Below are positions 4,473-64,000 of a stretch of DNA of 64,000 bases, piece after piece. The DNA is from an uncultured bacterium (GTDB lineage Bacteria > Omnitrophota > Omnitrophia > Omnitrophales > Aquincolibacteriaceae), in assembly GCA_964562525.1 (NCBI GenBank), contig CAZLTL010000005.1:876-64875 (forward strand). Direction: 5' to 3'. Both the position numbers and the translations under genes were made by a program. The notes below the pieces were generated by a model. It was not told the DNA's origin, did no database searches, and was given only the letters and a program-made list of their open reading frames with translations. Numbering within the stretch: the first letter of the stretch is position 1; each line of letters starts with the position of its first letter.

Positions 4473-4518
4473 TAGGGAATCCGCGAGTTAAATCATTTTT
4501 AAAGATCTTTTTAAGCTC

Positions 4519-5694
<1,176 letters not shown>

Positions 5695-41767: not shown

Positions 41768-41823
41768 CATTTTATCGCTGAGCTCACTCAACCGGCGTTA
41801 ATGCTTCAAAAGGCTTTTGACGA

Positions 41824-43676: not shown

Positions 43677-44646
43677 CCCTCTTTTCTTTTTATTGCTGCT
43701 TCTCTTGCCGATTTTATTTTATTTTTCCAGATCCAGACAAAAAGTGTGGATGCCGTTTTCCAGTATTTCTGAGCGGGGCTTGCATGGAACGGTGTCACTC
43801 AAAATTTTGCTTTACCGGCTTTTGCCTTTTTTGCGTTTGACCGTACTTGCTTTGGTGATATTTGCGCTTGCGCGGCCGGTTCAAGCTCTGTCAGAAAAAG
43901 ACTTCGAAACCCAGGGAATTGACATTGTGATGTCGCTAGATATTTCAGGCTCCATGCTGGCTGAGGATTTCAAGCCGCAGAACCGCTTGTTTGTTGCCAA
44001 GGAAGAAGCCAAAAACTTCATTAATGCCCGCCAGAATGACCGCATTGGATTGGTTATTTTTGCCAAAAAAGCCTACTCGCAATGCCCCTTAACGTTGGAT
44101 TACAAGATTTTGAATCAGCTGGTGGATGATGTGCAAATTGGGATGATCGAAGACGGCACTGCGATTGGAATGGGGCTGGCCACTGCGGTAAACCGGCTTA
44201 AAACAAGCACTGCCAAGAGCAAGGTCATCATTTTGCTGACCGATGGTGATAATAATGCCGGCAATATTGACCCTGTCACTGCCGCGGAGCTGGCGAAGAC
44301 ATTCGGAATTAAAGTGTATACGATTGGCGTTGGGAAAGGCGGGCTTGTTGATTTTCCTGTCGTGGATCCTTTGTTTGGGAAACGATATGTCCAGGTTGAA
44401 ATGGATGTGGACGAGTTTGTGCTGAAGCGAATCGCGGACATCACCGGAGGAAAGTTTTTCCGCGCTCGTGATGCGGCAGGACTTAAAGAAGTTTACTCAA
44501 AAATCGATCAGCTTGAACGTACAGAGATCAAAGTGCATCTCTATCAAAGCTATCAAGAGCTTTTTAAATATATTCTGATTCCCGCTGTCTTGCTTTTGTT
44601 CATTGAATTGGCTTTATCTAGAACTGTTTTACTTAAAATCCCATGA
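43657..44646 (+). CDS. batA: von Willebrand factor A-domain membrane protein, BatA-like
   Basis: N- and C-terminal TM helices flanking a vWA domain with the MIDAS motif (DIVMSLDISGSM...LTDGDNN). Confidence 0.7.
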   Translation: MGMQFRDPLFFLLLLLLPILFYFSRSRQKVWMPFSSISERGLHGTVSLKILLYRLLPFLRLTVLALVIFALARPVQALSEKDFETQGIDIVMSLDISGSMLAEDFKPQNRLFVAKEEAKNFINARQNDRIGLVIFAKKAYSQCPLTLDYKILNQLVDDVQIGMIEDGTAIGMGLATAVNRLKTSTAKSKVIILLTDGDNNAGNIDPVTAAELAKTFGIKVYTIGVGKGGLVDFPVVDPLFGKRYVQVEMDVDEFVLKRIADITGGKFFRARDAAGLKEVYSKIDQLERTEIKVHLYQSYQELFKYILIPAVLLLFIELALSRTVLLKIP

Positions 44647-44712
44647 CAACACACGATCAACACCAAAATAATAAATGGCGGTTGGGCATAGCCCAGAGCC
44701 GCAAATAATACT

Positions 44713-47031
44713 GTGCAATTTTATTCACCTTATTTTCTTAATCTGCTTTGGCTGGTTCCAATCTTGATTGTGTGTTTTTTTGCGTCTGCGTTTTTAAATG
44801 CAAATCGACTCAAGTCATTTTTGAAGACGCGTGAAATTCAAGACAAGCTTTTGCCGCATTACAATCGGCTTGAATGGCCGATTCGTGGCGCTTTTTTACT
44901 GGCCGCCTTTTTGTTGATCGTGCTCGCTTTGTCGCAGCCGCAATGGGGCGAAGAAAAGAAAAAAGTCGAACGCAAAGGCGTTGACCTTATTTTTCTTTTG
45001 GATGTTTCGCTGAGTATGCTTGCGGAGGATGTGAAACCAAGCCGGGTTCTTAAAGCTAAATTTGAGATTGAGGCTTTTGTGAAAGCATTGAAGGGGCATC
45101 GGATTGGTATGCTCACATTTGCCGGATCAAGTTTCATGCAGACACCTTTAACTTTAGATTACTCGGCGTTTCTCATCTTTTTAAGCGGTGTCGATGTGGG
45201 GCACGTCCCTGATCCGGGTACGTCCTTGGGCGCGGCTATTGAAAAAGCCATTGCAGCCTTTACCGATGAAAAGGGTAAGCAAAAAGCTTTGGTTGTATTC
45301 TCTGACGGTGAGGATCATGCCGCCCAAATTGATTCTGCGGTTGCCCTCGCAAAGCAGCAAAACGTCCGTATTTATACAATAGGAACCGCGACGGGGGAGG
45401 GGGCTCCTATCCCTCTTAAAAACGAAAGAGGGGTTCAAACCGCGGTCAAAAAAGACCGGGTGGGGAATATCGTGATTACTAAGCTGGATAAAGCAGTTTT
45501 ATCCAAAATTGCCACCGAGACAGGCGGGCTTTATTTTCCGGCGACCCCGAGTGAAAAAGAAGTCGATTTGATTTTGAAACACTTATCCAGCCTGGGTGAA
45601 AAAAAGCTGGAAGACCGGGTTGTGACGGAAAAAGAAGATCATTATCAGATCTTTTTGTTTATCGCTTTGATATTGCTCATGCTTGAAATGGTTGTGAAGC
45701 GTGGACGCGCGATACGGCTGAATATTCTGCCTTTCTTTTTTTTAGTTTTTATTTTGAACTCCGGATTTTTGCCCACGGCTCAAAATAAAGTTGAAGAAGG
45801 TAATAAAGATTTTGAAGGTAAACGGTATCAATCCGCTATTGATAAATACCGCGAAGTTCAGGTGAAAAATCCGGATGACCCGTCAGTTTCGTATAACTTA
45901 GCCACGTCGTTGTACAAGGTTGATCAATATCAAGAGTCCGCCGCACATTTAAAGAAATCCATGGAAAAGTCACAGGCTGAAAACAATGCTCTTCGCGCCA
46001 AGATTGCCTATAACTACGGCAATTCGCTTTTTCGCTTGGGAGATTATGACGGTGCGGTTGAAGCTTACAAGAAGGCACTTGAACTTAATCCTCAAGATCA
46101 AGACTCAAAATACAACTTAGAGTATATTCAGGATCAAAAAAGCAAATTTGAAAAAGAAAATCAGGACCGCAAAAAAGATAATCAAGATAAGAAGAACGAT
46201 CAAAACAAGCAGCAAAACAATAAAAATCAACAGCAGAACCAACAGCAAAATCAGCAAAACCAAGGTGGCGGGGGCAGCTCGAAGGATAATCAGAATCAAC
46301 AAGGGCAAAATAATCAGCAAAATCAAAGCGGTTCGGGCCAGCAAGATCAAAAACAGAATCAGGGCGGACAGGGCGAGAACAAGCAAAACACCGGGCAAAA
46401 TCAAGGGCAAGATCAAAAAGATCAGGGGCAAGGCCAAAATCAGAAAGATCAGCAAAGTCAGGGCGATCAGTCCGATCAAAACAAAGAGCAAAATCAGAGC
46501 TCAGGCGGCCAAGGCGAAAAGAAAGACGATGAGCAGAATCAAGGTGGTCAAGGTCAAGATCAAAAAGACCAAGGCGGTGGGCAGCAGGGTCAAGATCAAA
46601 ATCAAGGCGGTCAAGGGCAACAGGATCAGAAAGAACAGCAAGGACAAGGTCAGCAAGACAAGCAGCAGGGCCAAGGTGGGCAAAGTCAGCAAGAAAAAGA
46701 ACAGAATCAACAGGGCGGAAAGGGCCAAGAAAAAAACGATCAAGGGCAAAAGCCTGAGTCTAAGCCAGGCGAGCAGCCGGGCGGCGGACAGAAGCCTCAG
46801 GATCAGCCCTCCGGCGGCGGGGCTTCCGGTGGACAAGCTGGGGGTGGCGCTGGTGAGGAGCAACAGCAACAGGCTGGTGGTGCCGGCGGCAAGCCTCTTC
46901 AGGGGCAAATGAGTAAAGAGAATGCGGAATATCTGCTTGCTTCGCTAGAGGAAGGCGAAAAGAAGTTTCAAGTGATGCGGAAGCCGGCTGAAAATCAGTC
47001 TGAAGACCCTTATGTGGAAAAAGATTGGTAA
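44713..47031 (+). CDS. batB: BatB-like vWA membrane protein fused to a BatC-like TPR domain, with a ~250-aa Gln/Asn/Gly/Asp/Lys-rich low-complexity region
   Basis: N-terminal TM helix, vWA MIDAS motif (DLIFLLDVSLSM...FSDGEDH), two TM helices, TPR repeats (NYGNSLFRLGDYDGAVEAYKKALELNPQD), then a QNQGGQGQDQKDQ-type repetitive tail up to ~residue 735. Confidence 0.7.
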   Translation: MQFYSPYFLNLLWLVPILIVCFFASAFLNANRLKSFLKTREIQDKLLPHYNRLEWPIRGAFLLAAFLLIVLALSQPQWGEEKKKVERKGVDLIFLLDVSLSMLAEDVKPSRVLKAKFEIEAFVKALKGHRIGMLTFAGSSFMQTPLTLDYSAFLIFLSGVDVGHVPDPGTSLGAAIEKAIAAFTDEKGKQKALVVFSDGEDHAAQIDSAVALAKQQNVRIYTIGTATGEGAPIPLKNERGVQTAVKKDRVGNIVITKLDKAVLSKIATETGGLYFPATPSEKEVDLILKHLSSLGEKKLEDRVVTEKEDHYQIFLFIALILLMLEMVVKRGRAIRLNILPFFFLVFILNSGFLPTAQNKVEEGNKDFEGKRYQSAIDKYREVQVKNPDDPSVSYNLATSLYKVDQYQESAAHLKKSMEKSQAENNALRAKIAYNYGNSLFRLGDYDGAVEAYKKALELNPQDQDSKYNLEYIQDQKSKFEKENQDRKKDNQDKKNDQNKQQNNKNQQQNQQQNQQNQGGGGSSKDNQNQQGQNNQQNQSGSGQQDQKQNQGGQGENKQNTGQNQGQDQKDQGQGQNQKDQQSQGDQSDQNKEQNQSSGGQGEKKDDEQNQGGQGQDQKDQGGGQQGQDQNQGGQGQQDQKEQQGQGQQDKQQGQGGQSQQEKEQNQQGGKGQEKNDQGQKPESKPGEQPGGGQKPQDQPSGGGASGGQAGGGAGEEQQQQAGGAGGKPLQGQMSKENAEYLLASLEEGEKKFQVMRKPAENQSEDPYVEKDW
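46140..46905 (+). repeat. Coding low-complexity CAA/CAG/GGC/GAT/AAA-rich repeat tract (Gln/Asn/Gly-rich tail of batB)
   Basis: Highly repetitive DNA visible in the sequence. It generates spurious long ORFs in other frames on both strands. Confidence 0.7.
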
Positions 47032-49154: not shown

Positions 49155-52100
49155 TTACGCTGAGGCTTCAACCTTCTTGCGGGATGCAAGCTCAATGAGC
49201 AGTGATTTGAGAGCTTCGTTGTTCCAGTATTTGTTCATGTCGCGAATGCCGTTGCTCAATCGGGTATCCACACCAGGCGCGAATTGCAGATCAAATTGTT
49301 TTGCTCCGAACTCAATCGCTAACTTACCTGTCGAAATCGCTTTTGCTATGAGCTCCTGATCCAGTGTATTTTCACCGTCATAAGCAAACGTCATCAATTC
49401 ATGATCTGCAGGATTATTTGCAGCCAAGGTCTGATTCAACTCTGCCAACTTAGCGAGCATACGGTCATTGGTTGCCAGCTCTCTTGGCATCAAGATTGTG
49501 CTGCTGCTGATACCGATTCGAAGAATCTTCTTCGCGAGCACCTGAGCGTCGATTGCTTCGATGTTCGCAGCTGAAATGACGTCCACGTCGTTGATCTTCA
49601 AATTTCCGGTAGGATCAAGCAACATCACATTGGTTGTGCTGCGACCAATTTTAGATTTAAACGGACTTTGAACTCCGGCAACACCCTTCATGATTTGCTC
49701 AACAGCAAGTCGTGCTTTAGCATCAAGCGAAGCGTTTTTCAACGCTTCAAGGTATTCATTCATCAGCAGTACTTCTGCGGTGAATGAAGCGGCCATCGCA
49801 GATCGCTGCATACCCTTGACTGTTTCAAGATAAGCTTCAATTTCGCGAAGCATATCGATGTTAGAACCATAAAGCCCTGCGAAAGGAAGCAATTCGGAGT
49901 TAGCAGCAATAAGTTCGTCTGCTGTTTTCCCTTCCTGCGCGGCGTGAACCGCTTCGTGACTAACAATCGCAATTGCCATCCGCTCAACCATAACCGCGTA
50001 AGCTTGATCATCGAGCCCAACAAACTTATCAGGATTGAGAACAATCTTGCCTGCTATATCTTCGTTGGGCTCTTTTATGTCTGCATAAAGACCGAGCGCA
50101 TTGTTAGCAAAATAATCTCTCACCTGCTCTGGCGTTGCAAGCTCAATCGGCGGCAATGTCATATTTTTTAAGGAATCTGATTCTGGCGCTAACTGAGAAA
50201 TCTTTTTATCTGCAAGATTTACTATATCCGATAGAACTGAGTCTCTTAATTCAGATCGATTAGCGCTCACGGGTTGTTTTTCTGAATCCACAGCATCTAA
50301 CCCCATATTTACAGGCATTGTTGTTTCTGTAACAAACGCAGAACCCTTATCAGTACCCCAATTTTGAATTAAATCATGCACTCCAAATACCCAGCTGCGC
50401 ATATACATTGCCGCAGCCTTTTGGATATTGTCGGATTTTGTTACCTTAAACAGTTCAGCAGCTTCGCTTTCGGTTAAAATCTTTTCTCCGCGCTGCTTGA
50501 TCTCAGGCTGATTATTTTCCGCGAGTTTTGCATTCACTATAGACTCAGCTAGTTCTTTGTCACCGCGGCTAGCGGCATCAAGCCACTGAAAAAACCAGCG
50601 TGACATGTCAATCTGACCAAAATAATCAGATTGTTCTCCAAAAATAGCGCGATAAAGCTTGAATGCTTCTTGATAGTCGCCTTTTTCAAGCATGGCATCA
50701 GCTTGAGTGAAATTACTTCTATACTTCAAAATTGGGCTGTCACCTGCACTCACAATCTTACGGTAACTTGCCATTTTCTTAAGATAGAGCTCGTCCATCA
50801 TCGCGCCCGCTGCGGTAAGGCCTTCGTAAGCTTGATTTGCTTCACCTTCAGGCAGTGCGCGCAAATAAACTGTGGCAAAGTACTCAGCAAGAAAATCGCG
50901 TGCGATTTGCCCCTGGCTATCGGAACCTTGTTTGTGAATCCAAAGCATCATTTGAGCTTTCATACGCGTTTCATCCGCTGTCTTGGGATCAGCAACGATT
51001 GAAGTTAATTTTTTCTGAAGCGCGGATTCATCTTTAAGTAAAGTCTGAACTCCAAGCTGCTCTGCCAAATACTTCTCAGAAGCCCATTGGTCGAGCAAAT
51101 ATTCCATGGTTTCATGCAGCATAAAGGCACGAATCACACCATCGATTTGAGACTCTGAAGCCCCCATGGAGCGCATCAAATTCAGCTTCTTCAAGAGTTC
51201 TGCGCTGAAAAACATAATTTTTCCAGAAACATGAGCTGCTGCATCAGGATCAGAATCAACCGCTTTTTGAATATCGCGCAATACAAGCGCTGCATTAGTG
51301 ATAAAGGTCTTTGCCATAGGCTGTTCTTCGGCAGAAAAATTATTCCACTGCATTGACTCGAGTGATGCGGTTACTCTTTCTGCGGTTTTTTCGATCCAGG
51401 TTAGATCGACACCTAATCCATAAACGCGACGGAATTCTGAAAGAACATTCGTATGCACCATTTCTTCGGATTGATTAGCTAGGTCAAGCAGAGCTACCGT
51501 TCCTTCCAGATTTTGACGGAGGTCTTGTTCTAAAGCATTCTGTGAGCGCGCACTTAAAACTGCATTTGCAAAGTCATTACGGAAGGTTCCTTCTGCAAAC
51601 ATTGTAGTAATCAATCCGCCAGCATCTAATCCATGAACCTCAGCTAACATCTGAATACTTTCAGGCGTTAACCATTCGTATCGAGCAGCAATGGCCGCAA
51701 AAGCATCTTGAGTAATATTTGCGCGCAGCTCCATGTCTGCAGCAAATACCTGCTTAAGTTCTGCGATCGAAATATTAGTATTAAGCAAGGCTGATAAAGC
51801 TGAGTAATGCTGCGTGTTGATTTCGGAGTCCACCATTCGAAGAGCGTCTTCAACGGTTAAGCCCGCCTGTTTGGCATTCGCCAATACCCATGCCAGACTT
51901 TGTGAAGAACCTAGACCCTGCGTCTCAAAGCTAGCTATGGCTTTGAGATAAACATATTGCTTAAACATCGAGGTTTCAACACCTCCCAAAGCTTGTGCCA
52001 CAAGTGAATCAAAGATTGCACCGTCATTTATTTTTTCACCGGCCTGGCTAAGTAAAATTAACATCAATTGGGCTGATTTTCCGATGACTTCGGCATACGA

Positions 52101-55100
52101 CGCAGGAGCAAGCTGTTGGATGCGCTTAAGTGTTTGTGCAAAAGCTAGTGCCTCAGTAGAGCGTTCCCCATCACCCTGCTTAGTCATTTGCTTGATTAAG
52201 ATCTCATACTGTGAAGATGCAGCTCGATTACGCAAAACTTCCGAAGCTGCGCGCAATGGAGCTCCCCAGGTTTTCTGAGTTGCCCAGCGCGAAAGAAAGT
52301 TTTCGGTGCGGCCTAGAGTCTTACTGAGCGACTCAGCAGCAAGCGAGGTCATCTCATCATCACTTACGCTAAAGACCGCTTTTGTTAAACGCGCGTCAAA
52401 TTCTTGAACCAATTGAATGTAGGTCTCAATTGATCTGATGCTTATCTCGCGCGGCAGCGCTTTTACAAGATTTGCATGATGACGGATAATGAGAGATGCC
52501 GCTTTCGCGTCTATCAATAAATTCAGCTTACTTAATTCAGCGGCAGCATCCTCACCACTCATGTTTAAAATATTCGGAACTATTGCAGCAAGAGAATGAT
52601 CGCTTTTAAGACCTATCAGCGGAAGAAGCGTATTATTCCACCATCCCCGAATATTGTCTGTCATTCCGGGCATCCAGCGGCTTTGCGTAAGGGCGAGCAC
52701 TGCACCGAACATTCCAGCAGCAATCAAGAAAGCCGGTGTCCAAACAGCTCCGACCACAAGTCCAACAGAAGAAATGACTAATGCACGCTTGAGGTCGTTT
52801 GAATCATTGCCTTGCGTACCATACGCAAATGCTTTTAAGCGGTAAGCCCAGACAGCCGGGGTCAAATTCGTCTTCAAAAATCCTCGTTCGGTGCTGAGCG
52901 CTTGATACATTTTATCCTCTGAAATTTTAAGGCTTTCTGAGCGACGGATCATCCCTGATTCGAGATTTGAACGACGTGTACCTTGGGTAAACACGTTCTG
53001 ATAAACAGCAGCCTGCGCGCCCGTATTTGCAAAACCCATCGTGCGAATAGCACGCCAAGCCGCAAATTCAAAATTACGACTAACCAAAGTGCTCGCCAAC
53101 ATTTCACCAAGCAACGCATTCTGAGAATTACCCAACTCTACTTGATAATCAGCTAATGCATGACCGATGAATTCAAGCCGTTTAGCAAGATCCATCGAAT
53201 TTCGGCTTTCAAAAATATTCAGAGTGTTGAGATATTGAACCGCAGAGACCATGGCGTCATTTTGGCTTGATCCGCGATCAAAAGTGTCTCCGTTTAACGA
53301 TGCAATAAGCGCGACGGCCTCAATCACAGCACCTGCCGAAGACGGTGTGGTCACATTTGCGCCAAAAACTCCGCGAAGAAACTGAATCGAACGGTAGGCT
53401 CGGCCATTGACGGTACCCACTCCGATGTCACCTGTTTGCTTCCAATAATCAATTACCCGGTCAGCAAGTTCTGCCGAAACACCGCTTTCGTACTTGAGCT
53501 CGTTAATCGCGCGTTCAGGATTGTTCACGCGTTGCGCAACGTGCTTTTCGTATTTTTGTGCTTGTTCATTGCCCGCTATTCGGCTTTCGCGTGACTTAAG
53601 AATATAATCACTAAAGAGCATGACGGTTTTTACGAAGTCACGCGGGCTACCCTCTTGCTGGCGTGCAATGGAATAGCGGCCATCAGCATTGTCGGCTTCA
53701 ATCCGGGCAATATCAAATTCTGATGAAACCCGCTCACCCGTCATAGCACGTTCAATCGACATTAAATCGTGGAAATTGAAAACATGCTGTATCAATTCAC
53801 GAGATAGCCCTGTTTGAAGCAGTTTCTCCATCAAGGAGCCTCGCTCAACGCGGCTGGTTTCTGTCTTATTTCCAAAAACTTGCTGAATAGTCATTTCAAC
53901 CTGTCGGCGCACAAATTCACGGCCATCAACACCATCGCGTGAAAGCTCAGTCCACTCATTGCCGATTTTACCTTCTTCAAGCTCCGAGATGACTTCGCGG
54001 ATTTTTTTGAGCATTGGTTCATCTGCATTAAATGTAACAAGTAACTTTCGCATACCCTTCATGACCATAAAATCTTGCAGATACGTGCGTACAACTGCTT
54101 TTGCGCCCTCGGATTGATGCAAAGCTTCATTGAACTCCGCATTCAGGGTCAATACGGTTTCACGGCCAAATTCGCGTACGAGCTCTGCATTGAGGATTTC
54201 AGAAAAACGGGCGGGATCAATGCGCCCAGGCTCTTTCAGGCTGGCGGCTAATTCGAGAATTTTGCCGTACATCTGAAGTCGTGATTCGTAAAGAGCAATG
54301 CGGTTTTGCGACAAATTAACTTGCTCGTTAGAAGCATTCTTCATAACTTCAGATTCGATTGCCCGCACGGCTTCGAGTTCATTTGCAGAACGGGTTTGCA
54401 TGCGGTGCAAGAAACTGACAAAAGAGTCGTATGAGACTTCTCCGATAGCGGTTTTCAAGTTTCCTGCTAATGCTTCGGCATCTGCAAAAAGTCTGATTTG
54501 ACCCTGATTGGAGCGGTCGCGACCGATGACTTGCGCTAAGAAATGTGAGGCATAGTTCTGAACATCAAATGCAAAAACATGGGTCGCGGAAAGTGAGCGT
54601 GCTTCGTCAGGTAATACCTTCTTGAGGATATCAATCAGAGCTGTCTCACCTTCTTGTCCTTTGTATTCAGGGTTTTTCTGATTTTCTTTCATTTGCTCAA
54701 CCGCAGAATTGATTTCCCGATTTTCGCTCACGCTCATTTCACGAGGACGGGCTGCATTCAACCCGGTTCCGCCCACTTCGGTTGCAACGAGGATGCGGAA
54801 CCCTGAAACCATCTCACGTGCAAAACCAGGGATATTAGCTTCATTGGTATTTTGATCGACATTCAATATTTCATATTTGGCATCAAGTAATCCCTCTGCT
54901 TTCATTTTTGCAACTGACTCATCAATCCATTTGCGCATTTCAGGGTTACGCAGCACCATCACAAAGTTATCGTTGAAGACAACATTCGAGTTGCCTTTTT
55001 TCTCCGAAGCCTTAGCAACCGCATCGCGCATACTGGCTTCAAAAGAATCTTGGAACGCTACTTTTGAGACATTACCGTCCAATAATACTGTGCTAAGACG

Positions 55101-58100
55101 ATCGACGGATTTCGATGCGTAATAAGAAAGATCCGGAGCACTGCGGCCAAGCTCAAGTAACGCGTTTCCGGTGAATAGACGAATGTATTCAGGCATCGTC
55201 GCCGTAAGCGCCACAGCTCCGCGGATAAAATTTGACTGCACCGGCGTACCCATCTTAGTGCGTAACCGACCCAGTGAACCAGAATCAAACCAGCTTTCAA
55301 GCTTTGTCCAGTCTTGAATTTTGACTGAGCTGCTTTCAACGGACACGCCTTCTGTTTTTTGCGCGCCAAGTTCAGGTGTCACATCTGCTTTTTCAAAACC
55401 GTACTCACTAACTGTTTTGCCAAGTTTGCCGCCCAGGTCAGAGAAATACTTGTAAAGAGAAGCGATTTGCAATGCCACATCACTTGATTGCTGGTCTTTG
55501 TGAATGCGGATATTATCCGCGGGTTTTAATACCAGCCGCGCAAGCCCTTGTGCATTTTCTCCCACCATCACACCCATGCGGGTTTCCTTACCATAAAGTG
55601 CGAGAAAAATAGAAGAGAACTCACGAGCGAGCTGGATGCCGTATGGCGCTCCGATTTTCGTTAATTCGGCCTGAAGACCCGCAGTAAAAATAACTTGTCC
55701 GCCCAATTCATCGACATAAAAAGCTTTGCGGCCCGCACCCTCAGCGCCAAAATACTCAGAACCCAATGTGTCAAATTCACTACGCTTGATTTCTTCATAG
55801 CCCTTTTTCTTAAGCGTATCAATGAATTCAAAGTATTTTTCAATTGTTTCGCGCCCCACAAACTTAGGACGATTACCATCGGCAATGATGGCTTTCACAC
55901 GGCTGAACGCAGCAAATTGGGCTTCATCGAGCACAACTCGGTCGAATTTATCGTTGAGATAATGAATTAAATCTTTGCCTGCCGGACTGTCAATGTTGTT
56001 AAAAAGATGCGTCTTAGAAAGAATATCTGTGACCAAAACACCATTTTCTTTGCGGGCAAGTTCAGCCTGCAATCCGGCAAAATCACGATTACCATCCGCA
56101 ATATATTTATCCGCAAGAACCAATTCCATGCCGAGTGCTTTAGCAACTTGCGAGTTCGTTAAACCCGAACCAAACTCAATTTCGGTCGGCATTTTATTAG
56201 AAGACATTCGGTTTTCTAGAACAAGCGCGACGCGCCCTTTGCGCTCGTTAAAGTTACGGTTTGACATATAAAATGCCGAACCCAAAAGCTGCCCGCGGGT
56301 TTTACCGATGCCGGTTCCGGCCGAAACGTCAAAACCAAGGTCGATTCCTACTGCAATCATAAAATGCGCAGCACCGCGGCCCATCATATCCGCGAACGGA
56401 CGATCTGTTATATCGGTTAAACCTTTATCGCTCAACATTGCAGTTTCTCGATTAACACGCCCGTCTTTAGTCATCGTGGTTTCAAAAATAACTGTTTCAA
56501 AAATATAATTCTCGACTCGGCTTGCAAATTTCCCTGCAATTTCTTCGCGACCATTTGAGTTTTTATCAAATGTTTTGCGGATTCCATCGACAAGCTGTCT
56601 TGTAAGACCTGATTCCATCACATTTCTTATTTGCTGACGTACAGCTTGAATCGCTTCCTGATTTCCTGAACGTGCTGCATCAAACAGACTGGTGTTCAAG
56701 TTCTGCGCTGAAAGCTCTTGGTGTAAACGATCGCGTGCCGCAAGCACAAGATCAGCCGTTGATGCACGAGCAAGCAATGCCGTAATCTCAGACTCGCTTG
56801 TGGCTTTAATTAGCGCATCAAGCACTTCCGTTTTTCCGTCAACACGAGTTGCTTCAATCAAGGCACCGCGTAGTAACTGTTGAATTCGGCTGCCGGCCGT
56901 TTCTTTGATGCTCAACGCCTCACCGAGACTTGTACCCGTGGCAAACTGCACCAAATCAGCCACTTGCTCAAGCCCTGATCGATTGACTACAAGCTCTACT
57001 CGGCCTTTTAAATTTGATCCTTCAATCTCTAATTTGCGAATCTGATCGTGAACTGTTTGAATTTGTTCTGCGGAGCCTTTTTTCTGATAAAGTCCCTCAA
57101 GCTCTTGTCTCAATCCGTCAAGCTTCGTGTTTAGCGCTTTGTATTTCGGTTCGATCACGCGAACCTCGGCAATAGCTTCAACCCAAGCTTTCATCGCGGC
57201 TTTTGTTTCAAATCGTTCAATCATTTCGTGGTTTGACATTTTGAGCATCTCACGAATGGCTTCCGTGCGGATTTCAACATCGGTTTTGGATGCGGACGCA
57301 TCGATGTTTTTGAGTTCTTCGAGAGTTACAGTCTTCCATTCTGCGGCCAGGTATTCAAAAAGTGCCATTCCCGCATTTTGCGGTCCGGTGAGCTGGCGCA
57401 GCATTGCCAAAGTCTCGTAGCTGATATGAATCGTTTTGCCGTTAGCATCAAGAATGACGATACCTTCAAATGATTTATCCGCATTCTTGGAGGCGACACG
57501 GAAAACTTGAGCAGCCTTGGAGGGCGCTCGTGACTGAATCTCAGCAATGGCTTCTGCCGCTTTTTCCGCACGGATTGTCGGTGCGGCTTCATTCAAAGTA
57601 ACAGTCAAAACAGCGCGTGCGGCATCTTGTGCGCTGATTAACTCCGCTGGAGGTGCTAAATTTGTGAGCTGCGCCACAAATGCTTCGGCTAATGCCGGTA
57701 GTAAGTCGCTTAAACGTGTATTCAAAACCAAATTATCCTTAAACGCCGCGTCACTTAATCCAGTTTCTTTTAAAAACTCTTTTAATGTCTTACCGTTAAC
57801 CGCGTCAAACCCTTCATGTGCGAGCTTTACGGCTTCATTGAGAACGTTGGCAACTGTTTCAGTTAACGCTGCAGAATTTTCGGTATCGATAAAAAGGTCT
57901 GATACAAGTGTTCGTAAATATCCGCGATTGGACTGAGCGGTAAAAGCTTGAAAAAATCCTGATACCTCTTTAGCTGCAGTTGATCCAGAGAGCATTCCTT
58001 CGATAAAAAGATGCGGCTCAGATAAGATAACGCCACTGCTTAATCTTCCGCTCACATCCATATCTTTCAAAAGTTCGCGTGCTGCATACTTGTCCGTGAC

Positions 58101-61100
58101 TTTAACGCCTTGAACATCCGCTTCTGCGATTCTGCTAAATGAAACATTTTCAGTTTTCGCATCAGTTACGCGTGCTTCGGGCTCAGCGAATGAAATTGCG
58201 ATACCAAATTCAGCGAGTGTTCTACGCGAGGAAGCATGGTTCGCAATAACGTAGAAGTTAACCGTCGTCAAATCAATCGGCTTAGAGTCTTTAGGGAGAT
58301 TAACTTGCTCAAGACTGATGTCTTTTCTTTCAAACAAAATTTGATCTACCAAATCCATGCGCCGCTGTTGGTAAGCCTCTGCCAAAACGCGTCCGCCATC
58401 TGTTTGCGCTTTAACTTCCGTGATCCGCTCTATGGCGGTTTTGAAATCTGAATTAAAGCGCCCTTGAGCCGCAGTGGACATTAATGGATGCCGTGCTTGG
58501 GGCACTAAGAAAATCGCATACTCACCGACTCCCTGCATAAATTTACCGTAATTACCTTGAAAGTCGTTCGCTGCGGCAAACGCAGCAAAGCTGACGGGCA
58601 TCATGAAATAATGTGCCAGCATCATCGGAATTGACTCAAGCGTAGCCGGCCCGCTTACGCCGCCAATCGGAGTATAAGTTCCGGTCAAAAGAGCGGTAAC
58701 ACCATTAATCGATGAAAGCACCGCATTAAACATCAACATATTGTCAGCAAATGCGAGGAATTTACCGGCACCGCCGGGTTGAAGCATATGATTTTTATAA
58801 AAATTATTATTGAAAGTATTAGCCAAACCACGGATTAATCCTTGAGTTTCAGATAATGTGCCCAGCGCTCCCCGAGAGTACGTAATTCCGGCAACATGCA
58901 TAACTTGTCCCAAAATTACATCGTGAGCAAGACGCTCTGTACCCCATGCTTCGAGGCTTAGAAACTCGTGGTCGAACCAAGCCCAAGCGAGGCGGACATT
59001 GCCCCAGTTTTCCCATCCATAAGTTTTGCCGTCAGGACCAATATTGGCTCCAAAATCAGCGAAAAGATGTTTAATGCCAAGCAAAGACTCCGCAACAGGA
59101 AAGGCATGGAAAAATATCACGCTACTGTATGCTTGATCCCATAGCGCGCTCACAAGCGCTTTATTACCGTGAATCGATTGCTCCAAAGCTCCAGAAATGG
59201 GCATATAGCCTGATTTAACCGCTAAATCACGGCTGACCAACGGTAAAAACTGAGACTTTCCATCACGCAATATAAATTTGCCGTTCACAATAGATGCACG
59301 CGATACGGATGCGGATAATCCCACAAGAAAACGGAATGCAAATCCAGCGCTAAAAAAGTAGAGCCCCCAGCTTTGAACCTGCTTATTGCCTGTAATTATG
59401 CCGACAGTTAAAGTACCTGCGCCAATCCATGAAGCAACGACGCCTGTACCATAGGCAAAACGTGTTGCGGCATTTAATCCAGAAATGCCGCGCAAACTTC
59501 CTAAGAAAAGCGGCCCCATCAACATGAATCCGCCGGTGACGGCAAGGGCTGTGCCCACCACTTTTAGAAAGGCAATATCGTAGTGGTGTCCCACTTGCTG
59601 CAAGGCGGCACCGAGACCGATTACAGAGGCACTGACTGTATTCCAGCTTTTTAAGGCAGCTAAGGCGGCTGTTCCGAGCCCCTGAGTGGTGCTCCAACCT
59701 TTGGCAAGATCACGCAAGGTGCTGACACTCTTTATTGCATTGGATCCGAACGTTTGCCACCCAGCCTTTGTGAACGCGGCTGCCCCAACACGAGCGCTAC
59801 TTACTGCGAATGATTTGATAAAAACACCCAAGCGTGCCCCCACAGGTAAATACGACAGGGTGCTACCTACATCCAGAGTTGCATTGAGCCATGTTCCTTG
59901 TATGCCGTTGGATTGTAAAATGGCATTGCCAACTGTGCTCGCGAGACCGATACCTCCGAGCGTGTCTACCGTAGTCCAAAAAGTTGATGTGCCGCCAACA
60001 CCGCCCAAAGCACCAAGCCCATATGCAAGACCAATAGCGCCGCCAACCATAGCAACTCCGCCAAATACTTTCAGATAATTGCCGACAGAATTATCTCCGG
60101 CATAGCTGCCTGCCATGTACATACCTGCTCCCACACCTAGCCAAATGGTACCGCCGACAGCAAAAGCACTCGCAGTTGATACAGAACCCACCGCCACTGT
60201 TGTTGATCCGGCTAATACCAATGCACCAGTGCCGTAAGTCACAACAACCATACCCACCACAGCCAAGGCTGCTGCACCACCGCGCAGCCATTTTTCACCC
60301 GTGCTCATATCGCTCCAAACAGACTGCGCGGAAAGCCAAAAACTATTGTCGTAAGATTCACGCATACGGAGTACGCGGCCTGAAGCATCGATATCTTCAA
60401 CATGGGAATGCTGCGAGCCCTCTGCGTAATTGAGATACTTGATAGAGGTCGCCTGATTGTCAGAGTTAAAGGTGCGAGCAAGCTCAAAGCGGTCGTCGTC
60501 GGTGTCTTCATATTTAAATGAAGCCAGTTGCCCCGCCGCATTGAATGTCAGACTACCTTTGAATCCAATCAAATTGACGGATTCGCCAGCATTTCCCGGT
60601 TGAGGAACAAATATCTGTGGATCGTTATCAATGATTCCACCGTCAATAAACTGGTACTCAGCAGCTTGCTTGAAATTATTGTTTTTATAGACCGCAATCA
60701 GTTTATTGTCGCCGCCGTTGTTCTCAGAAAGTGAGAATGTGATGTGATGCGTATTATCATCAACGCGAGTGAACTCATATCCGACACCAGAACCTTCGAG
60801 AGTAATCGGGTTATTTTTCCCCATCAATATCCATTCATGGCCAAATTCAGTCACAATCACTGAGCTGCCAGAAATAAACTGATTACTATTGGTCATATTC
60901 ACCCACGCAACGTTACCATTTACGTCGCGCAAGTAGGATCGTTCGTTTTTTTCTTTATAGGTTTGGCCGGTAGGCATCATAGCGCCGCCAACACTGCCAT
61001 AGCTCACCTGGTATCCCGTTGCTTGCCATTCACCCGTTTTAATTTGCACAAAAGTGCTGCCGTTTACCAGCGCATATGTATATTTCGTTCTGTTTTCACC

Positions 61101-64000
61101 CACTGAAACGGATTGTCGAATGACTTTTCCCTGCTCGTTAAAAACATACGTGGAACTATCACTGAAACTGAATTGAAACAGATTTTTATCAGACGCGCTG
61201 TAACCTTCTAAGCTCATCCCAGACAGATTCTTTGAAATGATATTATTCAAGTCGCTAAGATCTGCCGCAAATGAACCCGAGAAATTAATCAAAGGAAGTG
61301 CTCGAGCGTCTACAATATGTCCGCTTTCACCCTTGACGTCCCATGCCGCGAATGAAACATCTCCGCTTTGAATATCTTTAAACCGAAGAATTGTTCCGCT
61401 TACATTGGTGATTTCATGCGTATCGGTTTTGCTGTATATCAAAGACTGAGCGATTCCCGCTGCACGCGCCGCTTGCGCAGATTCAGAACCGGCTGGCAAT
61501 TTCTCAAAATCAAAATCTATGGCGCCGCGGAATGCGCCGATTAAACTGTTTTTGCTGTCGACAAATACTCTTAAAGCTAAGTCAGTGCCAATTTCGTCAC
61601 CCGAAATAACTTTTGAGGATGTTGCGTGAGTCGAAATCAATTCAGCAACCGCGTTATTCACTGATATTTCCGAGGAAGAAGTGTTCCTTGGATCATTGGC
61701 AGAATAAACAGTAACCGAAGTTTGAATATTGGCTTTATCTTGTTTAAGCTCGCTCTCATTGGCCCAGCGCATATCCGAGCCGAATTGGCGGTCAAAGCCG
61801 TCAACGAGTTCTCCGTCGTTGTTATAGACACCAAGAAAGTCACGACCAATATTTTCACCCGGAAGAATCTTGAACCCTGCGCGAGTTTCAGCATATAAGA
61901 GTCCTTTAATATTGTCCGCGCTGCTGAAAACTGCAATAGTTGCACCCTGCGCCAAAGGATCAGTGCCTGCAAAGAGATCCGTATCCACAAATACGCGGAA
62001 TGAGCTGTTATTTTTATCTGAGCCCACCAACAGCAGGTTTGCCTCAGCTAAACCATAGCGGCCTTCATACTGTTGGCCCGATTGTGATATAAATTTTGAG
62101 CCTTCTTTACGCTCAAGGTTTTGTTGCTGCCGCTGCAATTCAGCTGGAGTTGCCGCTTGCAGCATATTGCCGGAGCGATCGAGCGCTCCAAAAAGTGATT
62201 TACCATCTTCGCTGAGAATCTGATACCAGTGTCCAGAACGATCCATATTGAGCAAAGCACGGTTACCATCGATCTCGATTGCCATTTGCTGTAATGATGC
62301 AAATTCACTCAAATTGCCGAAACGTGTCGCCAAAATCTCACTCGCTTCATTGAGGTAGATTGCGATTCCTGCATTATCTCCGCGGTCACTAATAATTTCA
62401 TATGCCGGAGAAATAGATTTCCAAGTTTTTCCGCTGCCATCACTCAAGCTCTTGTATTCACCGCTCTGTGGCAAGTTGTATCCGGAAGTTCCGTAGGCTT
62501 TCCGCAAAACCTCAGTTTGAGTTTTGCGGTCAAACAGGCCTATAGTTCCGCTTGTGTCGCGTATCAAATAACTTTCTTCACCTAAATGAGGTTGATATGT
62601 TTTTCCGGCAATTTGAAAAAATACTGTCTGGATTTGATCGTTGATCGTACCTAAGCCAGCGGGTTGCAGTACTTCTAATGTCACGCCTTGAAGCATACCA
62701 ATACGATCACCGGATTCGTTTAAATAGTATGCAACACTAACTTCGCGACCATTTTGGTCGAATGCAATACCCTTGACGAATTTGTTGTAGGCAAACTGCT
62801 TGGTAGGATCATTCGATTGAAGTGGATTTAACTTACCGCCAGCTTCCATCTTAGCGGGGCCATTCATGAACTGATAACCTACAAAAGCGCCATTGGCATC
62901 CGTGATCTTGAAGCTGTTGTTGCCCATGCCGGAGTAGCTTTGGTTATTTGCATAGGCAAAAAGTGTCATGGCTTCAAAACTGCCTACGCCAGTTACCATT
63001 CTATCAATCGCTTGATCTAAGCTCAGTGTTTTGTCGCCATTCCACTGGCTGACCAAAGTGATTCTATTCTCATGCGCAAAGAAACTAAAATGTTCTCCTT
63101 TGTTATTTGTCGCGCCAAAGACGCGCTCAACGTTAAGACCGCCGATTGATGTGTTCTTTGCAAATTCACCAGCAACTTTGTCAGTATCAACAGTCTTACC
63201 AGAATCAAAATGACCATTATGCCCAAGCACGCCTACTAATTCACCCGTGCGAAGATCATTAACCTGAAACGCTTGCGCGATATTCATTAATCCGCTCATT
63301 TCGTATTTAAAATTACCAACTTGATAACTCATGTACGTTAAGCCTTCAAATGAAGTCAGAGTTATATTTTGAGAGGCAGGACCATTCACTAGCAAATTAG
63401 CAAATTCAGGCAATCCCATGACTGCATTGATTTCATTCAGTGTTGATTGATTTCCGCGCAAAGTAATTGATTGACCGCGTTCATTCACCAAAAGCTGATA
63501 CATTTGTCCGTTGTTGGCGTCAGCGGTTAAAACTTGTTTCGCTGTGAATGTTGCGCTCTTCAAACCATCGCGCGTATTAAGCGACCAGGTATATGGCGAA
63601 TCAAGTGTGCGCGCATCGTAGAATTTGCCGCTGACACCGATTATTCCGTCAAGACTATGAGTGTAAGGGTTAAACACAGAGTAAACGCCATAATCCCCGT
63701 TTTGGAAAGCTTCAGGCAGGTGGCGATATTCGAGACCATCCTGCGTGTAAAATAATGCAAGTGTCTTATCCTTGCCGACCCCTGTCATCATCAAACTCGC
63801 AATATCCCCATTCTCAAATCCGATTTCAAACGAGGCTTTTTTCTGCGCGCTAAAAAGGGTTACAGACGAATCAATATTTAAATTGAGCAACCCTGATTTA
63901 GTATGAACTTGAGGTTGATCTTTGGTCCAAGTTCTCAAAGACAAGTATTCGCCCTGGTTAATGAACCCGATCACGGCTTGGGTTTTAAGATCGCGAGCGA
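49155..64000 (-). CDS. Giant multidomain membrane protein, >4,939 aa, 5' end beyond the window. Beta-rich N-terminal region, Gly/Ala-rich polytopic TM segment, central SF2/SNF2-like P-loop ATPase, second TM hairpin, long alpha-helical C-terminus with HExxH
   Basis: A single uninterrupted 14.8-kb minus-strand ORF (stop TAA at 49155-49157) that stays open to the window edge. Walker A DVSAGTGIGKT (~56296-56335), Walker B VVLDEAQ (55917-55937), motif V ILVATEVGGTGLN (54761-54805), motif VI AQVIGRDRS (54511-54537). Gly-zipper TM cluster ~59277-60297. HEAVH at 49924-49938. No other frame has comparable ORFs. Confidence 0.8.
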   Translation of the reverse strand, partial: ARDLKTQAVIGFINQGEYLSLRTWTKDQPQVHTKSGLLNLNIDSSVTLFSAQKKASFEIGFENGDIASLMMTGVGKDKTLALFYTQDGLEYRHLPEAFQNGDYGVYSVFNPYTHSLDGIIGVSGKFYDARTLDSPYTWSLNTRDGLKSATFTAKQVLTADANNGQMYQLLVNERGQSITLRGNQSTLNEINAVMGLPEFANLLVNGPASQNITLTSFEGLTYMSYQVGNFKYEMSGLMNIAQAFQVNDLRTGELVGVLGHNGHFDSGKTVDTDKVAGEFAKNTSIGGLNVERVFGATNNKGEHFSFFAHENRITLVSQWNGDKTLSLDQAIDRMVTGVGSFEAMTLFAYANNQSYSGMGNNSFKITDANGAFVGYQFMNGPAKMEAGGKLNPLQSNDPTKQFAYNKFVKGIAFDQNGREVSVAYYLNESGDRIGMLQGVTLEVLQPAGLGTINDQIQTVFFQIAGKTYQPHLGEESYLIRDTSGTIGLFDRKTQTEVLRKAYGTSGYNLPQSGEYKSLSDGSGKTWKSISPAYEIISDRGDNAGIAIYLNEASEILATRFGNLSEFASLQQMAIEIDGNRALLNMDRSGHWYQILSEDGKSLFGALDRSGNMLQAATPAELQRQQQNLERKEGSKFISQSGQQYEGRYGLAEANLLLVGSDKNNSSFRVFVDTDLFAGTDPLAQGATIAVFSSADNIKGLLYAETRAGFKILPGENIGRDFLGVYNNDGELVDGFDRQFGSDMRWANESELKQDKANIQTSVTVYSANDPRNTSSSEISVNNAVAELISTHATSSKVISGDEIGTDLALRVFVDSKNSLIGAFRGAIDFDFEKLPAGSESAQAARAAGIAQSLIYSKTDTHEITNVSGTILRFKDIQSGDVSFAAWDVKGESGHIVDARALPLINFSGSFAADLSDLNNIISKNLSGMSLEGYSASDKNLFQFSFSDSSTYVFNEQGKVIRQSVSVGENRTKYTYALVNGSTFVQIKTGEWQATGYQVSYGSVGGAMMPTGQTYKEKNERSYLRDVNGNVAWVNMTNSNQFISGSSVIVTEFGHEWILMGKNNPITLEGSGVGYEFTRVDDNTHHITFSLSENNGGDNKLIAVYKNNNFKQAAEYQFIDGGIIDNDPQIFVPQPGNAGESVNLIGFKGSLTFNAAGQLASFKYEDTDDDRFELARTFNSDNQATSIKYLNYAEGSQHSHVEDIDASGRVLRMRESYDNSFWLSAQSVWSDMSTGEKWLRGGAAALAVVGMVVVTYGTGALVLAGSTTVAVGSVSTASAFAVGGTIWLGVGAGMYMAGSYAGDNSVGNYLKVFGGVAMVGGAIGLAYGLGALGGVGGTSTFWTTVDTLGGIGLASTVGNAILQSNGIQGTWLNATLDVGSTLSYLPVGARLGVFIKSFAVSSARVGAAAFTKAGWQTFGSNAIKSVSTLRDLAKGWSTTQGLGTAALAALKSWNTVSASVIGLGAALQQVGHHYDIAFLKVVGTALAVTGGFMLMGPLFLGSLRGISGLNAATRFAYGTGVVASWIGAGTLTVGIITGNKQVQSWGLYFFSAGFAFRFLVGLSASVSRASIVNGKFILRDGKSQFLPLVSRDLAVKSGYMPISGALEQSIHGNKALVSALWDQAYSSVIFFHAFPVAESLLGIKHLFADFGANIGPDGKTYGWENWGNVRLAWAWFDHEFLSLEAWGTERLAHDVILGQVMHVAGITYSRGALGTLSETQGLIRGLANTFNNNFYKNHMLQPGGAGKFLAFADNMLMFNAVLSSINGVTALLTGTYTPIGGVSGPATLESIPMMLAHYFMMPVSFAAFAAANDFQGNYGKFMQGVGEYAIFLVPQARHPLMSTAAQGRFNSDFKTAIERITEVKAQTDGGRVLAEAYQQRRMDLVDQILFERKDISLEQVNLPKDSKPIDLTTVNFYVIANHASSRRTLAEFGIAISFAEPEARVTDAKTENVSFSRIAEADVQGVKVTDKYAARELLKDMDVSGRLSSGVILSEPHLFIEGMLSGSTAAKEVSGFFQAFTAQSNRGYLRTLVSDLFIDTENSAALTETVANVLNEAVKLAHEGFDAVNGKTLKEFLKETGLSDAAFKDNLVLNTRLSDLLPALAEAFVAQLTNLAPPAELISAQDAARAVLTVTLNEAAPTIRAEKAAEAIAEIQSRAPSKAAQVFRVASKNADKSFEGIVILDANGKTIHISYETLAMLRQLTGPQNAGMALFEYLAAEWKTVTLEELKNIDASASKTDVEIRTEAIREMLKMSNHEMIERFETKAAMKAWVEAIAEVRVIEPKYKALNTKLDGLRQELEGLYQKKGSAEQIQTVHDQIRKLEIEGSNLKGRVELVVNRSGLEQVADLVQFATGTSLGEALSIKETAGSRIQQLLRGALIEATRVDGKTEVLDALIKATSESEITALLARASTADLVLAARDRLHQELSAQNLNTSLFDAARSGNQEAIQAVRQQIRNVMESGLTRQLVDGIRKTFDKNSNGREEIAGKFASRVENYIFETVIFETTMTKDGRVNRETAMLSDKGLTDITDRPFADMMGRGAAHFMIAVGIDLGFDVSAGTGIGKTRGQLLGSAFYMSNRNFNERKGRVALVLENRMSSNKMPTEIEFGSGLTNSQVAKALGMELVLADKYIADGNRDFAGLQAELARKENGVLVTDILSKTHLFNNIDSPAGKDLIHYLNDKFDRVVLDEAQFAAFSRVKAIIADGNRPKFVGRETIEKYFEFIDTLKKKGYEEIKRSEFDTLGSEYFGAEGAGRKAFYVDELGGQVIFTAGLQAELTKIGAPYGIQLAREFSSIFLALYGKETRMGVMVGENAQGLARLVLKPADNIRIHKDQQSSDVALQIASLYKYFSDLGGKLGKTVSEYGFEKADVTPELGAQKTEGVSVESSSVKIQDWTKLESWFDSGSLGRLRTKMGTPVQSNFIRGAVALTATMPEYIRLFTGNALLELGRSAPDLSYYASKSVDRLSTVLLDGNVSKVAFQDSFEASMRDAVAKASEKKGNSNVVFNDNFVMVLRNPEMRKWIDESVAKMKAEGLLDAKYEILNVDQNTNEANIPGFAREMVSGFRILVATEVGGTGLNAARPREMSVSENREINSAVEQMKENQKNPEYKGQEGETALIDILKKVLPDEARSLSATHVFAFDVQNYASHFLAQVIGRDRSNQGQIRLFADAEALAGNLKTAIGEVSYDSFVSFLHRMQTRSANELEAVRAIESEVMKNASNEQVNLSQNRIALYESRLQMYGKILELAASLKEPGRIDPARFSEILNAELVREFGRETVLTLNAEFNEALHQSEGAKAVVRTYLQDFMVMKGMRKLLVTFNADEPMLKKIREVISELEEGKIGNEWTELSRDGVDGREFVRRQVEMTIQQVFGNKTETSRVERGSLMEKLLQTGLSRELIQHVFNFHDLMSIERAMTGERVSSEFDIARIEADNADGRYSIARQQEGSPRDFVKTVMLFSDYILKSRESRIAGNEQAQKYEKHVAQRVNNPERAINELKYESGVSAELADRVIDYWKQTGDIGVGTVNGRAYRSIQFLRGVFGANVTTPSSAGAVIEAVALIASLNGDTFDRGSSQNDAMVSAVQYLNTLNIFESRNSMDLAKRLEFIGHALADYQVELGNSQNALLGEMLASTLVSRNFEFAAWRAIRTMGFANTGAQAAVYQNVFTQGTRRSNLESGMIRRSESLKISEDKMYQALSTERGFLKTNLTPAVWAYRLKAFAYGTQGNDSNDLKRALVISSVGLVVGAVWTPAFLIAAGMFGAVLALTQSRWMPGMTDNIRGWWNNTLLPLIGLKSDHSLAAIVPNILNMSGEDAAAELSKLNLLIDAKAASLIIRHHANLVKALPREISIRSIETYIQLVQEFDARLTKAVFSVSDDEMTSLAAESLSKTLGRTENFLSRWATQKTWGAPLRAASEVLRNRAASSQYEILIKQMTKQGDGERSTEALAFAQTLKRIQQLAPASYAEVIGKSAQLMLILLSQAGEKINDGAIFDSLVAQALGGVETSMFKQYVYLKAIASFETQGLGSSQSLAWVLANAKQAGLTVEDALRMVDSEINTQHYSALSALLNTNISIAELKQVFAADMELRANITQDAFAAIAARYEWLTPESIQMLAEVHGLDAGGLITTMFAEGTFRNDFANAVLSARSQNALEQDLRQNLEGTVALLDLANQSEEMVHTNVLSEFRRVYGLGVDLTWIEKTAERVTASLESMQWNNFSAEEQPMAKTFITNAALVLRDIQKAVDSDPDAAAHVSGKIMFFSAELLKKLNLMRSMGASESQIDGVIRAFMLHETMEYLLDQWASEKYLAEQLGVQTLLKDESALQKKLTSIVADPKTADETRMKAQMMLWIHKQGSDSQGQIARDFLAEYFATVYLRALPEGEANQAYEGLTAAGAMMDELYLKKMASYRKIVSAGDSPILKYRSNFTQADAMLEKGDYQEAFKLYRAIFGEQSDYFGQIDMSRWFFQWLDAASRGDKELAESIVNAKLAENNQPEIKQRGEKILTESEAAELFKVTKSDNIQKAAAMYMRSWVFGVHDLIQNWGTDKGSAFVTETTMPVNMGLDAVDSEKQPVSANRSELRDSVLSDIVNLADKKISQLAPESDSLKNMTLPPIELATPEQVRDYFANNALGLYADIKEPNEDIAGKIVLNPDKFVGLDDQAYAVMVERMAIAIVSHEAVHAAQEGKTADELIAANSELLPFAGLYGSNIDMLREIEAYLETVKGMQRSAMAASFTAEVLLMNEYLEALKNASLDAKARLAVEQIMKGVAGVQSPFKSKIGRSTTNVMLLDPTGNLKINDVDVISAANIEAIDAQVLAKKILRIGISSSTILMPRELATNDRMLAKLAELNQTLAANNPADHELMTFAYDGENTLDQELIAKAISTGKLAIEFGAKQFDLQFAPGVDTRLSNGIRDMNKYWNNEALKSLLIELASRKKVEASA

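Follow-up and report, generated by a model that had tools for sequence, protein, structure and literature searches.

What is a helicase-type ATPase doing in the middle of a giant membrane protein? The question arises from a 64,000-nucleotide stretch of DNA (the window) from an uncultured bacterium of the Aquincolibacteriaceae, within the Omnitrophota (positions 876 to 64,875 of contig CAZLTL010000005.1, assembly GCA_964562525.1). On its minus strand, an open reading frame (ORF) at window positions 49155..63974 encodes a protein of 4,939 amino acids (aa) that bears such a motor. Giant ORFs are widespread in Omnitrophota and are poorly annotated (Seymour et al. 2023). We are nearly certain that the segment is a genuine, conserved superfamily 2 (SF2) ATPase motor of the DEAD-like kind with its key catalytic motifs intact. 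The best explanation overall, to which we give slightly more than even weight, is a highly diverged SecA-type motor that works in cis.

The ATPase module spans aa about 2525-3200 (window 54375..56402, minus strand, as for all features of the protein given below) and consists of RecA lobe 1, an insertion, and RecA lobe 2. An earlier note on this DNA had quoted four SF2 motifs, and all four are present in the ORF in the same place and order. Motif I, GFDVSAGTGIGKTRGQ (aa 2547-2562, window 56289-56336), contains the Walker A core AGTGIGKT (aa 2552-2559, window 56298..56321) with Lys2558. Motif II, RVVLDEAQFAAF (aa 2679-2690, window 55905-55940), contains VVLDEAQ (aa 2680-2686), which ends in the Walker B sequence DEAQ (aa 2683-2686, window 55917..55928). 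Lobe 2 (aa about 2945-3170, window 54465..55142) carries motif V, ILVATEVGGTGLNAA (aa 3061-3075, window 54750-54794), with the core ILVATEVGGTGLN (aa 3061-3073, window 54756-54794), and motif VI, AQVIGRDRSNQGQ (aa 3147-3159, window 54498-54536), which includes AQVIGRDRS (aa 3147-3155). We also recognized a motif III block that the note did not list, TKMGTPVQSNFIRGAVALTATMPEYIRLFTGN (aa 2906-2937, window 55164..55259), with LTAT at aa 2923-2926. The distance from Lys2558 to Asp2683 is 125 aa, which is as expected of an SF2 protein and within a few residues of the noted value; motifs II and V are 378 aa apart, and motifs V and VI are separated by 86 aa rather than the roughly 75 aa first estimated.

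We counted conservation over 20 non-redundant homologous segments (alignment A3) that share 28-49% identity with the window segment; the motifs were already conserved in an earlier set of 10 homologues. The motif I pattern SA.TG.GK[ST] is found in 19/19 homologues that cover this part; ahead of it lies a conserved block peculiar to the family, ADxxGRGxSxF..A.G...GxD(V/I)SA. The D, E, and Q of motif II are invariant in all 20 segments (family form hhhDE[AV]Q), and a conserved stretch, ..AF...(K/E)AII..G, follows them. The motif III block has the pattern TK.G[TS]P.Q..(8-9 aa)..L[ST]AT.P....L.TGN...LG.S..DL, in which T, G, P, Q, A, T, T, G, and N are invariant. Motif VI takes the form AQ.[IL]GRDR..G, with A, Q, G, R, D, R, and G invariant, including the arginines at the arginine-finger positions that the earlier note had suggested checking. 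Motif V is the least conserved motif (family form (T/S)ERIATG.D), and it aligns with motif V of PriA and RecG, two bona fide SF2 helicases encoded in the same window.

The resemblance to SecA comes first from profile-profile comparison. We aligned the family with hhalign against a profile built from 14 diverse SecA and SecA2 proteins, taken from PLSDB records and from E. coli, with five E. coli DEAD-box paralogues (the RNA helicases RhlE, DeaD, SrmB, RhlB, and DbpA), RapA, DinG, and Rep as controls. Lobe 1 (aa 2519-2704) matches SecA at P 5e-5 (5.8e-5 with the 14 sequences, 3.3e-4 with five), 8-9 z units over column-shuffled controls. The alignment is colinear through the helix before Walker A, the Walker A itself (GEGKT in SecA, GIGKT here), LGLtVG/LGxELV, and DEVD...PLIISG/DEAQ...AIIADG. 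The superfamily 1 control Rep reached P 0.003 against lobe 1. Lobe 2 is weakly similar to any of the profiles (P about 2e-3).

The second line of evidence is the insertion, an alpha/beta segment of about 205 aa (aa about 2700-2905, window 55260..55877) that splits lobe 1 and is our candidate for a PPXD-like clamp. The extra sequence that the earlier note had placed between motifs II and V is real, and it is sited specifically between motifs II and III. It begins 14-16 aa after the DE.Q of motif II and carries a conserved element, KP.D...QQSSD(V/I)ALQ(I/L). The PPXD of SecA leaves nucleotide-binding domain 1 at the equivalent point, after DEVDSILIDEARTPLIISG, taking the generally known domain boundaries. 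In ordinary DEAD-box proteins motifs II and III are about 25-30 residues apart; among known SF2 families, SecA is characterized by a domain inserted into the loop that follows motif II, the Arch domains of XPD/DinG being the other known case.

We modeled the insertion by itself, flanked by short stems, from 12 sequences (aa 2675-2941). The model reached a mean predicted local distance difference test score (pLDDT) of 75, with a core at 80-93, and a predicted template modeling score of 0.73. Its elements follow the order helix, helix, beta-hairpin, helix, helix, beta-hairpin, helix, and then a further small hairpin and helix. In a Foldseek search against 350,542 chains, the top match was a PPXD-containing chimera with maltose-binding protein (MBP) (E 0.066, probability 0.63). 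This chimera is the only structural match of the insertion, and it ranks first under two different algorithms. No other MBP-containing chain appeared among the top 50 despite the abundance of MBP fusions in the PDB; therefore, the match does not come from the MBP part. We regard a likeness of the insertion to the PPXD as probable, although not established. The full module, modeled at pLDDT 60, has two tandem RecA-like alpha/beta lobes, and AlphaFold2 predicts long helices after lobe 2. A fold search with the module returned SF2 proteins only.

Several results weigh against a SecA assignment. Pfam gave nothing above threshold for the window protein, for 10 members taken individually, for the family consensus, or for two whole relatives (P0003 and P0008); neither PF07517 nor PF01043 matched the window protein, the 10 members, or the consensus. 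NCBIfam had no match to the window protein, the members, or the consensus either, and PDB sequences yielded nothing relevant by phmmer with the single sequence or by hmmsearch with profiles of 2 and 10 sequences. Our own hidden Markov model (HMM) of the 14 SecA sequences matched no family member, although it found an embedded SecA-like domain from Legionella at 4e-56. The DEAD-box profile (5 sequences) fits lobe 1 as well as SecA does (P 1.5e-4), and the motif III block is best matched by the DEAD-box pattern FSAT.P..I..L (P 6.6e-4), which it resembles more than GMTGTA of SecA. Global and local hhalign comparison of the insertion with a PPXD profile, with shuffled controls, was not significant (z 1-2.8), and the register of this alignment is ambiguous, flipping between two hairpin-helix units. 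The chimera match has a root-mean-square deviation of 12-13 A and marginal Foldseek significance, and native SecA chains are not among the listed matches. Motif V of the window protein reads ATEVGGTGLN, with Val and Asn in place of the Arg and Asp that most members carry (ATERAGTGFD, GSSRIATGRD). Finally, no SecY-like or other secretion genes are conserved beside the gene at the compared loci. BLASTP and hhalign against the single E. coli SecA sequence were likewise not significant.

The silence of Pfam reflects divergence rather than a failure of the tool, because the same models matched PriA and RecG of this window at 1e-13 to 1e-27. The family consensus matched Helicase_C weakly (E 0.004, 17 bits), below the gathering score of 23.5. 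The earlier note had staked its SF2 claim on profile hits and on conservation in orthologues. Curated profiles gave no hit (Pfam, NCBIfam, and HMM searches of PDB sequences), and on a literal reading of the note's own criterion this alone would defeat the claim. The motifs, however, are conserved in the 20 segments; the claim survives the negative searches with support that comes only from structure prediction, profile-profile comparison, and orthologue conservation. Judged by its sequence, the motor is DEAD-like SF2 and not SNF2, with SecA and DEAD-box inseparable. SecA membership is not proven, given that SecA HMMs miss the motor and the insertion carries no sequence signal; we consider SecA-type ancestry and mechanism close to an even call, leaning slightly toward yes. 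The motif V substitutions could mean altered coupling or lowered activity in the clade of the window protein. L002, the closest relative of the window protein, also lacks the motif V Arg.

Compared with canonical SecA and SecA2, the window family shares the two DEAD-like lobes with a colinear lobe 1, a domain that interrupts lobe 1 at the same point, the match of that domain to the PPXD chimera, and predicted long helices after lobe 2. It differs in having no HMM-level similarity, in its motif III (L(S/T)AT.P rather than GMTGTA), and in giving no Pfam match to SecA_SW (scaffold and wing). The window protein has no Zn-finger C-terminus, is free of cysteine, and holds its motor covalently within a membrane protein, whereas SecA is a soluble, peripherally bound dimer.

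At preprint level, the embedded SecA-like motor in giant Omnitrophota proteins is a known kind. Most full-length giant genes of the phylum have been described as encoding numerous transmembrane (TM) regions together with "divergent secA DEAD helicase domains" and SecA preprotein-binding domains (West-Roberts et al. 2023, bioRxiv 10.1101/2023.11.21.568195). Those SecA-like domains lack scaffold and wing, lie beside TM regions, and form a long-branched clade apart from the ordinary SecA of the same genomes; the authors proposed a role for them in exporting either the giant protein that contains them or accessory proteins (bioRxiv 10.1101/2023.11.21.568195). A PF07517 architecture cluster of 20 proteins has also been reported among long Omnitrophota proteins (2026 preprint, bioRxiv 10.64898/2026.06.07.730766). 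The window family has in common with the published domains its phylum, a very long, multi-TM, mostly unannotated host, a motor downstream of a TM region, and the undetected scaffold and wing; the published domains are themselves described as extremely divergent and long-branched. Three points set the window family apart. The published domains were found by Pfam HMMs, whereas this family lies beyond HMM detection, being missed by PF07517, PF01043, and our SecA HMM. Its hosts are smaller, at 3-7k aa (2.8k to more than 7.3k aa versus over 30k aa, compared by description). And its motor belongs to a distinct conserved module: after the ATPase come about 500 aa, then a hydrophobic segment, and finally a C-terminal region that ends in a ...xSA tail and bears an HExxH motif in most, though not all, of the long members.

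Embedded motors also occur outside Omnitrophota. On a plasmid of Legionella geestiana of 13.8 kb (L030; NZ_CP041715.1, 3366-6665), a 2,947-aa hypothetical protein has a divergent SecA-like motor that is 25% identical to E. coli SecA 98-602; this is the domain that our SecA HMM detected.

The setting of the motor within its protein bears on how it might work in cis. A Gly/Ala-rich hydrophobic cluster at aa 1232-1803 (window 58566..60281), delimited by hydropathy and charge-free stretches rather than by a dedicated TM predictor, probably consists of multi-pass membrane segments and lies about 720 aa upstream of the motor. A hydrophobic stretch of 35 aa at aa 3731-3765 (window 52680..52784), identified in the same way and interpretable as a TM helix or hairpin, lies about 530 aa downstream, and 8 of 9 long family members have such a segment at a comparable distance after the ATPase (about 490-660 aa). 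The TM flanks that the earlier note had described are thus present in a loose sense, although they do not adjoin the motor. Because the motor is embedded in a long charged, helix-rich stretch between the upstream cluster and the downstream segment, we infer that it faces the cytoplasm, with its own polypeptide as the tether that holds it to the membrane.

Further downstream, the window protein has an HExxH motif (IVSHEAVHAAQ; aa 4673-4677, window 49944-49958), about 260 aa from the C-terminus, and 7 of 12 long family members have one at a like position in an (I/V)HE.VH context. The C-terminal tails (window 49158-49193 here) are alike in most members: ...VEASA, VAVAA, VASAA, AAVSA, VEVSA, ISRSA, and TAKSA. 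Pfam had no match over the HExxH region. Taken together, the motif and the tails hint that the C-terminal domain is metalloprotease-like and that the terminus carries a conserved signal. Across the whole 4,939-aa protein, Pfam found no domain at E up to 0.01, the best match being an irrelevant family at E 0.056. The protein contains no cysteine at all, versus 4-12 in its homologues.

If the motor is indeed of SecA type, ATP would bind between the lobes at Lys2558, Asp2683/Glu2684, and Arg3152/Arg3154. Binding and hydrolysis would open and close the lobes and shift the inserted PPXD-like clamp, and the movement of the clamp could drive unfolded polypeptide through the membrane. The membrane anchor in cis would take the part that scaffold, wing, and C-terminal elements play in free SecA, and the exported cargo might be parts of the giant protein or partner proteins.

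The strongest competitor, which we regard as unlikely but of real weight, is that the module is an SF2-fold ATPase not derived from SecA: a DEAD-like motor with an unrelated insertion, serving as a mechanochemical switch for some different task of the giant protein, such as conformational control, remodeling of envelope or prey surfaces, or moving a non-protein polymer. Such a switch would account for the inability of sequence to separate SecA from DEAD-box, the DEAD-box-like motif III block, the lack of significant sequence similarity between insertion and PPXD, and the failure of SecA HMMs on every member. It would also fit the about 500 conserved residues, hydrophobic segment, and C-terminal region (with HExxH in most long members) that follow the motor, none of which SecA has. 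It leaves less explained, however, that the insertion occupies the position typical of SecA while Arch domains were not matched, that the only structural match of the insertion is the PPXD-containing chimera, and that SecA-like domains are already documented in giant Omnitrophota proteins.

We consider it improbable that the motor is a membrane-tethered nucleic-acid helicase or translocase of the DEAD-box, SNF2, or RIG-I-like kind, acting on RNA or DNA at the membrane, for example in DNA uptake or export or on prey nucleic acids. The DEAD-box P values for lobe 1 and motif III and the weak Helicase_C match of the consensus point this way. Motif VI shares the Q..GR..R pattern with DEAD-box helicases. 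Nevertheless, the Pfam DEAD, SNF2, and ResIII models gave no match (DEAD scored E 0.17 in one of 10 members) while PriA and RecG were strongly matched, and our own DEAD-box HMM matched no family member. The motor also differs from DEAD-box helicases in having DEAQ rather than DEAD, in the 205-aa insertion between motifs II and III, and in its membrane-protein context. Pfam detected no nucleic-acid-binding accessory domains on the whole protein, and the Q motif, PTRELA, and TPGR are not apparent by eye in the printed conserved blocks, for which no systematic search was made. As for SNF2, the GTP(I/V)Q string of the family resembles the SNF2 motif III TGTPxQN, but the actual motif III, L(S/T)AT, sits 9-11 aa after GTP.Q. 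The SNF2 likeness seen in the earlier note proved nonspecific, with RapA at P 0.07 for lobe 1 and, aligned at LLLTATPEQ, a nonsignificant P 0.088 for motif III. SNF2 membership was rejected on these values, on the absence of a Pfam SNF2 match, and on the insertion lying inside lobe 1 and not between the lobes.

A far-reaching extension of the cis-acting SecA-type motor, which we hold to be distinctly improbable, is that the giant protein is a self-contained export machine in a single polypeptide, threading and maturing itself independently of SecYEG. Such a machine would combine about 1,230 aa of N-terminal cargo or adhesin, a multi-pass Gly/Ala-rich membrane conduit of its own, a cis-tethered SF2 motor with a clamp that is SecA-like by descent or by convergence, and a C-terminal HExxH protease-like domain for self-processing. 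If this were true, the motor would be an SF2 lineage so far unseen by all curated profiles.

The remaining reading, chance motif resemblance or a decayed pseudo-ATPase without nucleotide turnover, could draw on the silent curated libraries and the two deviating motif V positions of the window protein, but it is extremely improbable and was rejected on motif conservation and the hhalign shuffle controls: exactly the catalytic positions, namely both Walker motifs, motif III, and the arginines of motif VI, stay invariant at 28-49% overall identity, which rules out chance, and the fold search is confined to SF2.

The family that carries this motor is restricted to Omnitrophota. An exhaustive HMMER pass over 1.84 billion representative proteins gave only 13 matches, 8 of them very long (2,823-5,849 aa). 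Among GTDB species genomes we found 14 loci, nine titled as Omnitrophota/Omnitrophica metagenome-assembled genomes (MAGs) and five as "uncultured bacterium" MAGs. A metagenome scan added one further short fragment, and tblastn against PLSDB plasmids and INPHARED phages found no match. A word-indexed homologue search returned one partial Omnitrophota protein (815 aa, 41% identity), and the same with a 10-sequence profile. Very long proteins thus seem to be effectively missed by word-indexed search, which yielded this fragment versus the eight giants of the exhaustive one. In L007, L008, L005, L015, and L012, from other Omnitrophota MAGs, the ORFs fill the fetched loci of 20-22 kb and are at least 6,000-7,357 aa long, so that members can far exceed the window protein in size; L015 has an additional insertion of about 200 aa within its ATPase module.

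Homology among members is colinear; it starts shortly ahead of the ATPase, continues over the next roughly 500 residues and the downstream hydrophobic segment, and resumes at aa about 4000-4700. Before the motor, members have 320 to about 2,750 aa of N-terminal sequence that is mostly unalignable among them. The conserved unit therefore comprises the motor, a linker, the membrane segment, and the C-terminal region, whereas the N-terminal part varies. This module, with its ...xSA-tailed C-terminal region and mostly with HExxH, could mark related proteins.

Few known proteins are larger or less well understood than the giant proteins of Omnitrophota, and their route to the membrane and the cell surface is open. 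The window family adds smaller hosts whose motor is missed by Pfam, NCBIfam, and PDB-sequence searches yet has invariant catalytic motifs; embedded SF2 motors are under-counted in HMM-based surveys of giant proteins. With a module of about 680 aa in a protein of 4.9k aa, the window protein offers a more tractable target for the idea of a self-exporting giant protein.

The genes around the giant ORF are housekeeping genes: DnaK, a MoxR/Bat operon, YqeY, an Lnt-like gene, SMC, AlaRS, PriA, and RecG. Other family loci have unrelated neighbors, and there is no conserved partner system. The MoxR-DUF58-BatA-BatB (VWA/TPR) operon, at window 40769-47031 on the plus strand, is convergent to the giant gene, and VWA-TPR and VWA genes are placed convergently in the same way beside the full-length orthologue that is closest (P0002 = L003, 16858-19630, minus strand).

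Short SecA-like proteins turned up among the PLSDB matches as well. H24, H25, and H27 (for example L028, on a Pontibrevibacter plasmid) are SecA-like proteins of about 660 aa that match only about the first 650 aa (about 70%) of E. coli SecA. They are annotated as "DEAD/DEAH box helicase" or under "prepilin peptidase", and the neighbors of L028 include genes for a PqqD-family chaperone and an RND adaptor.

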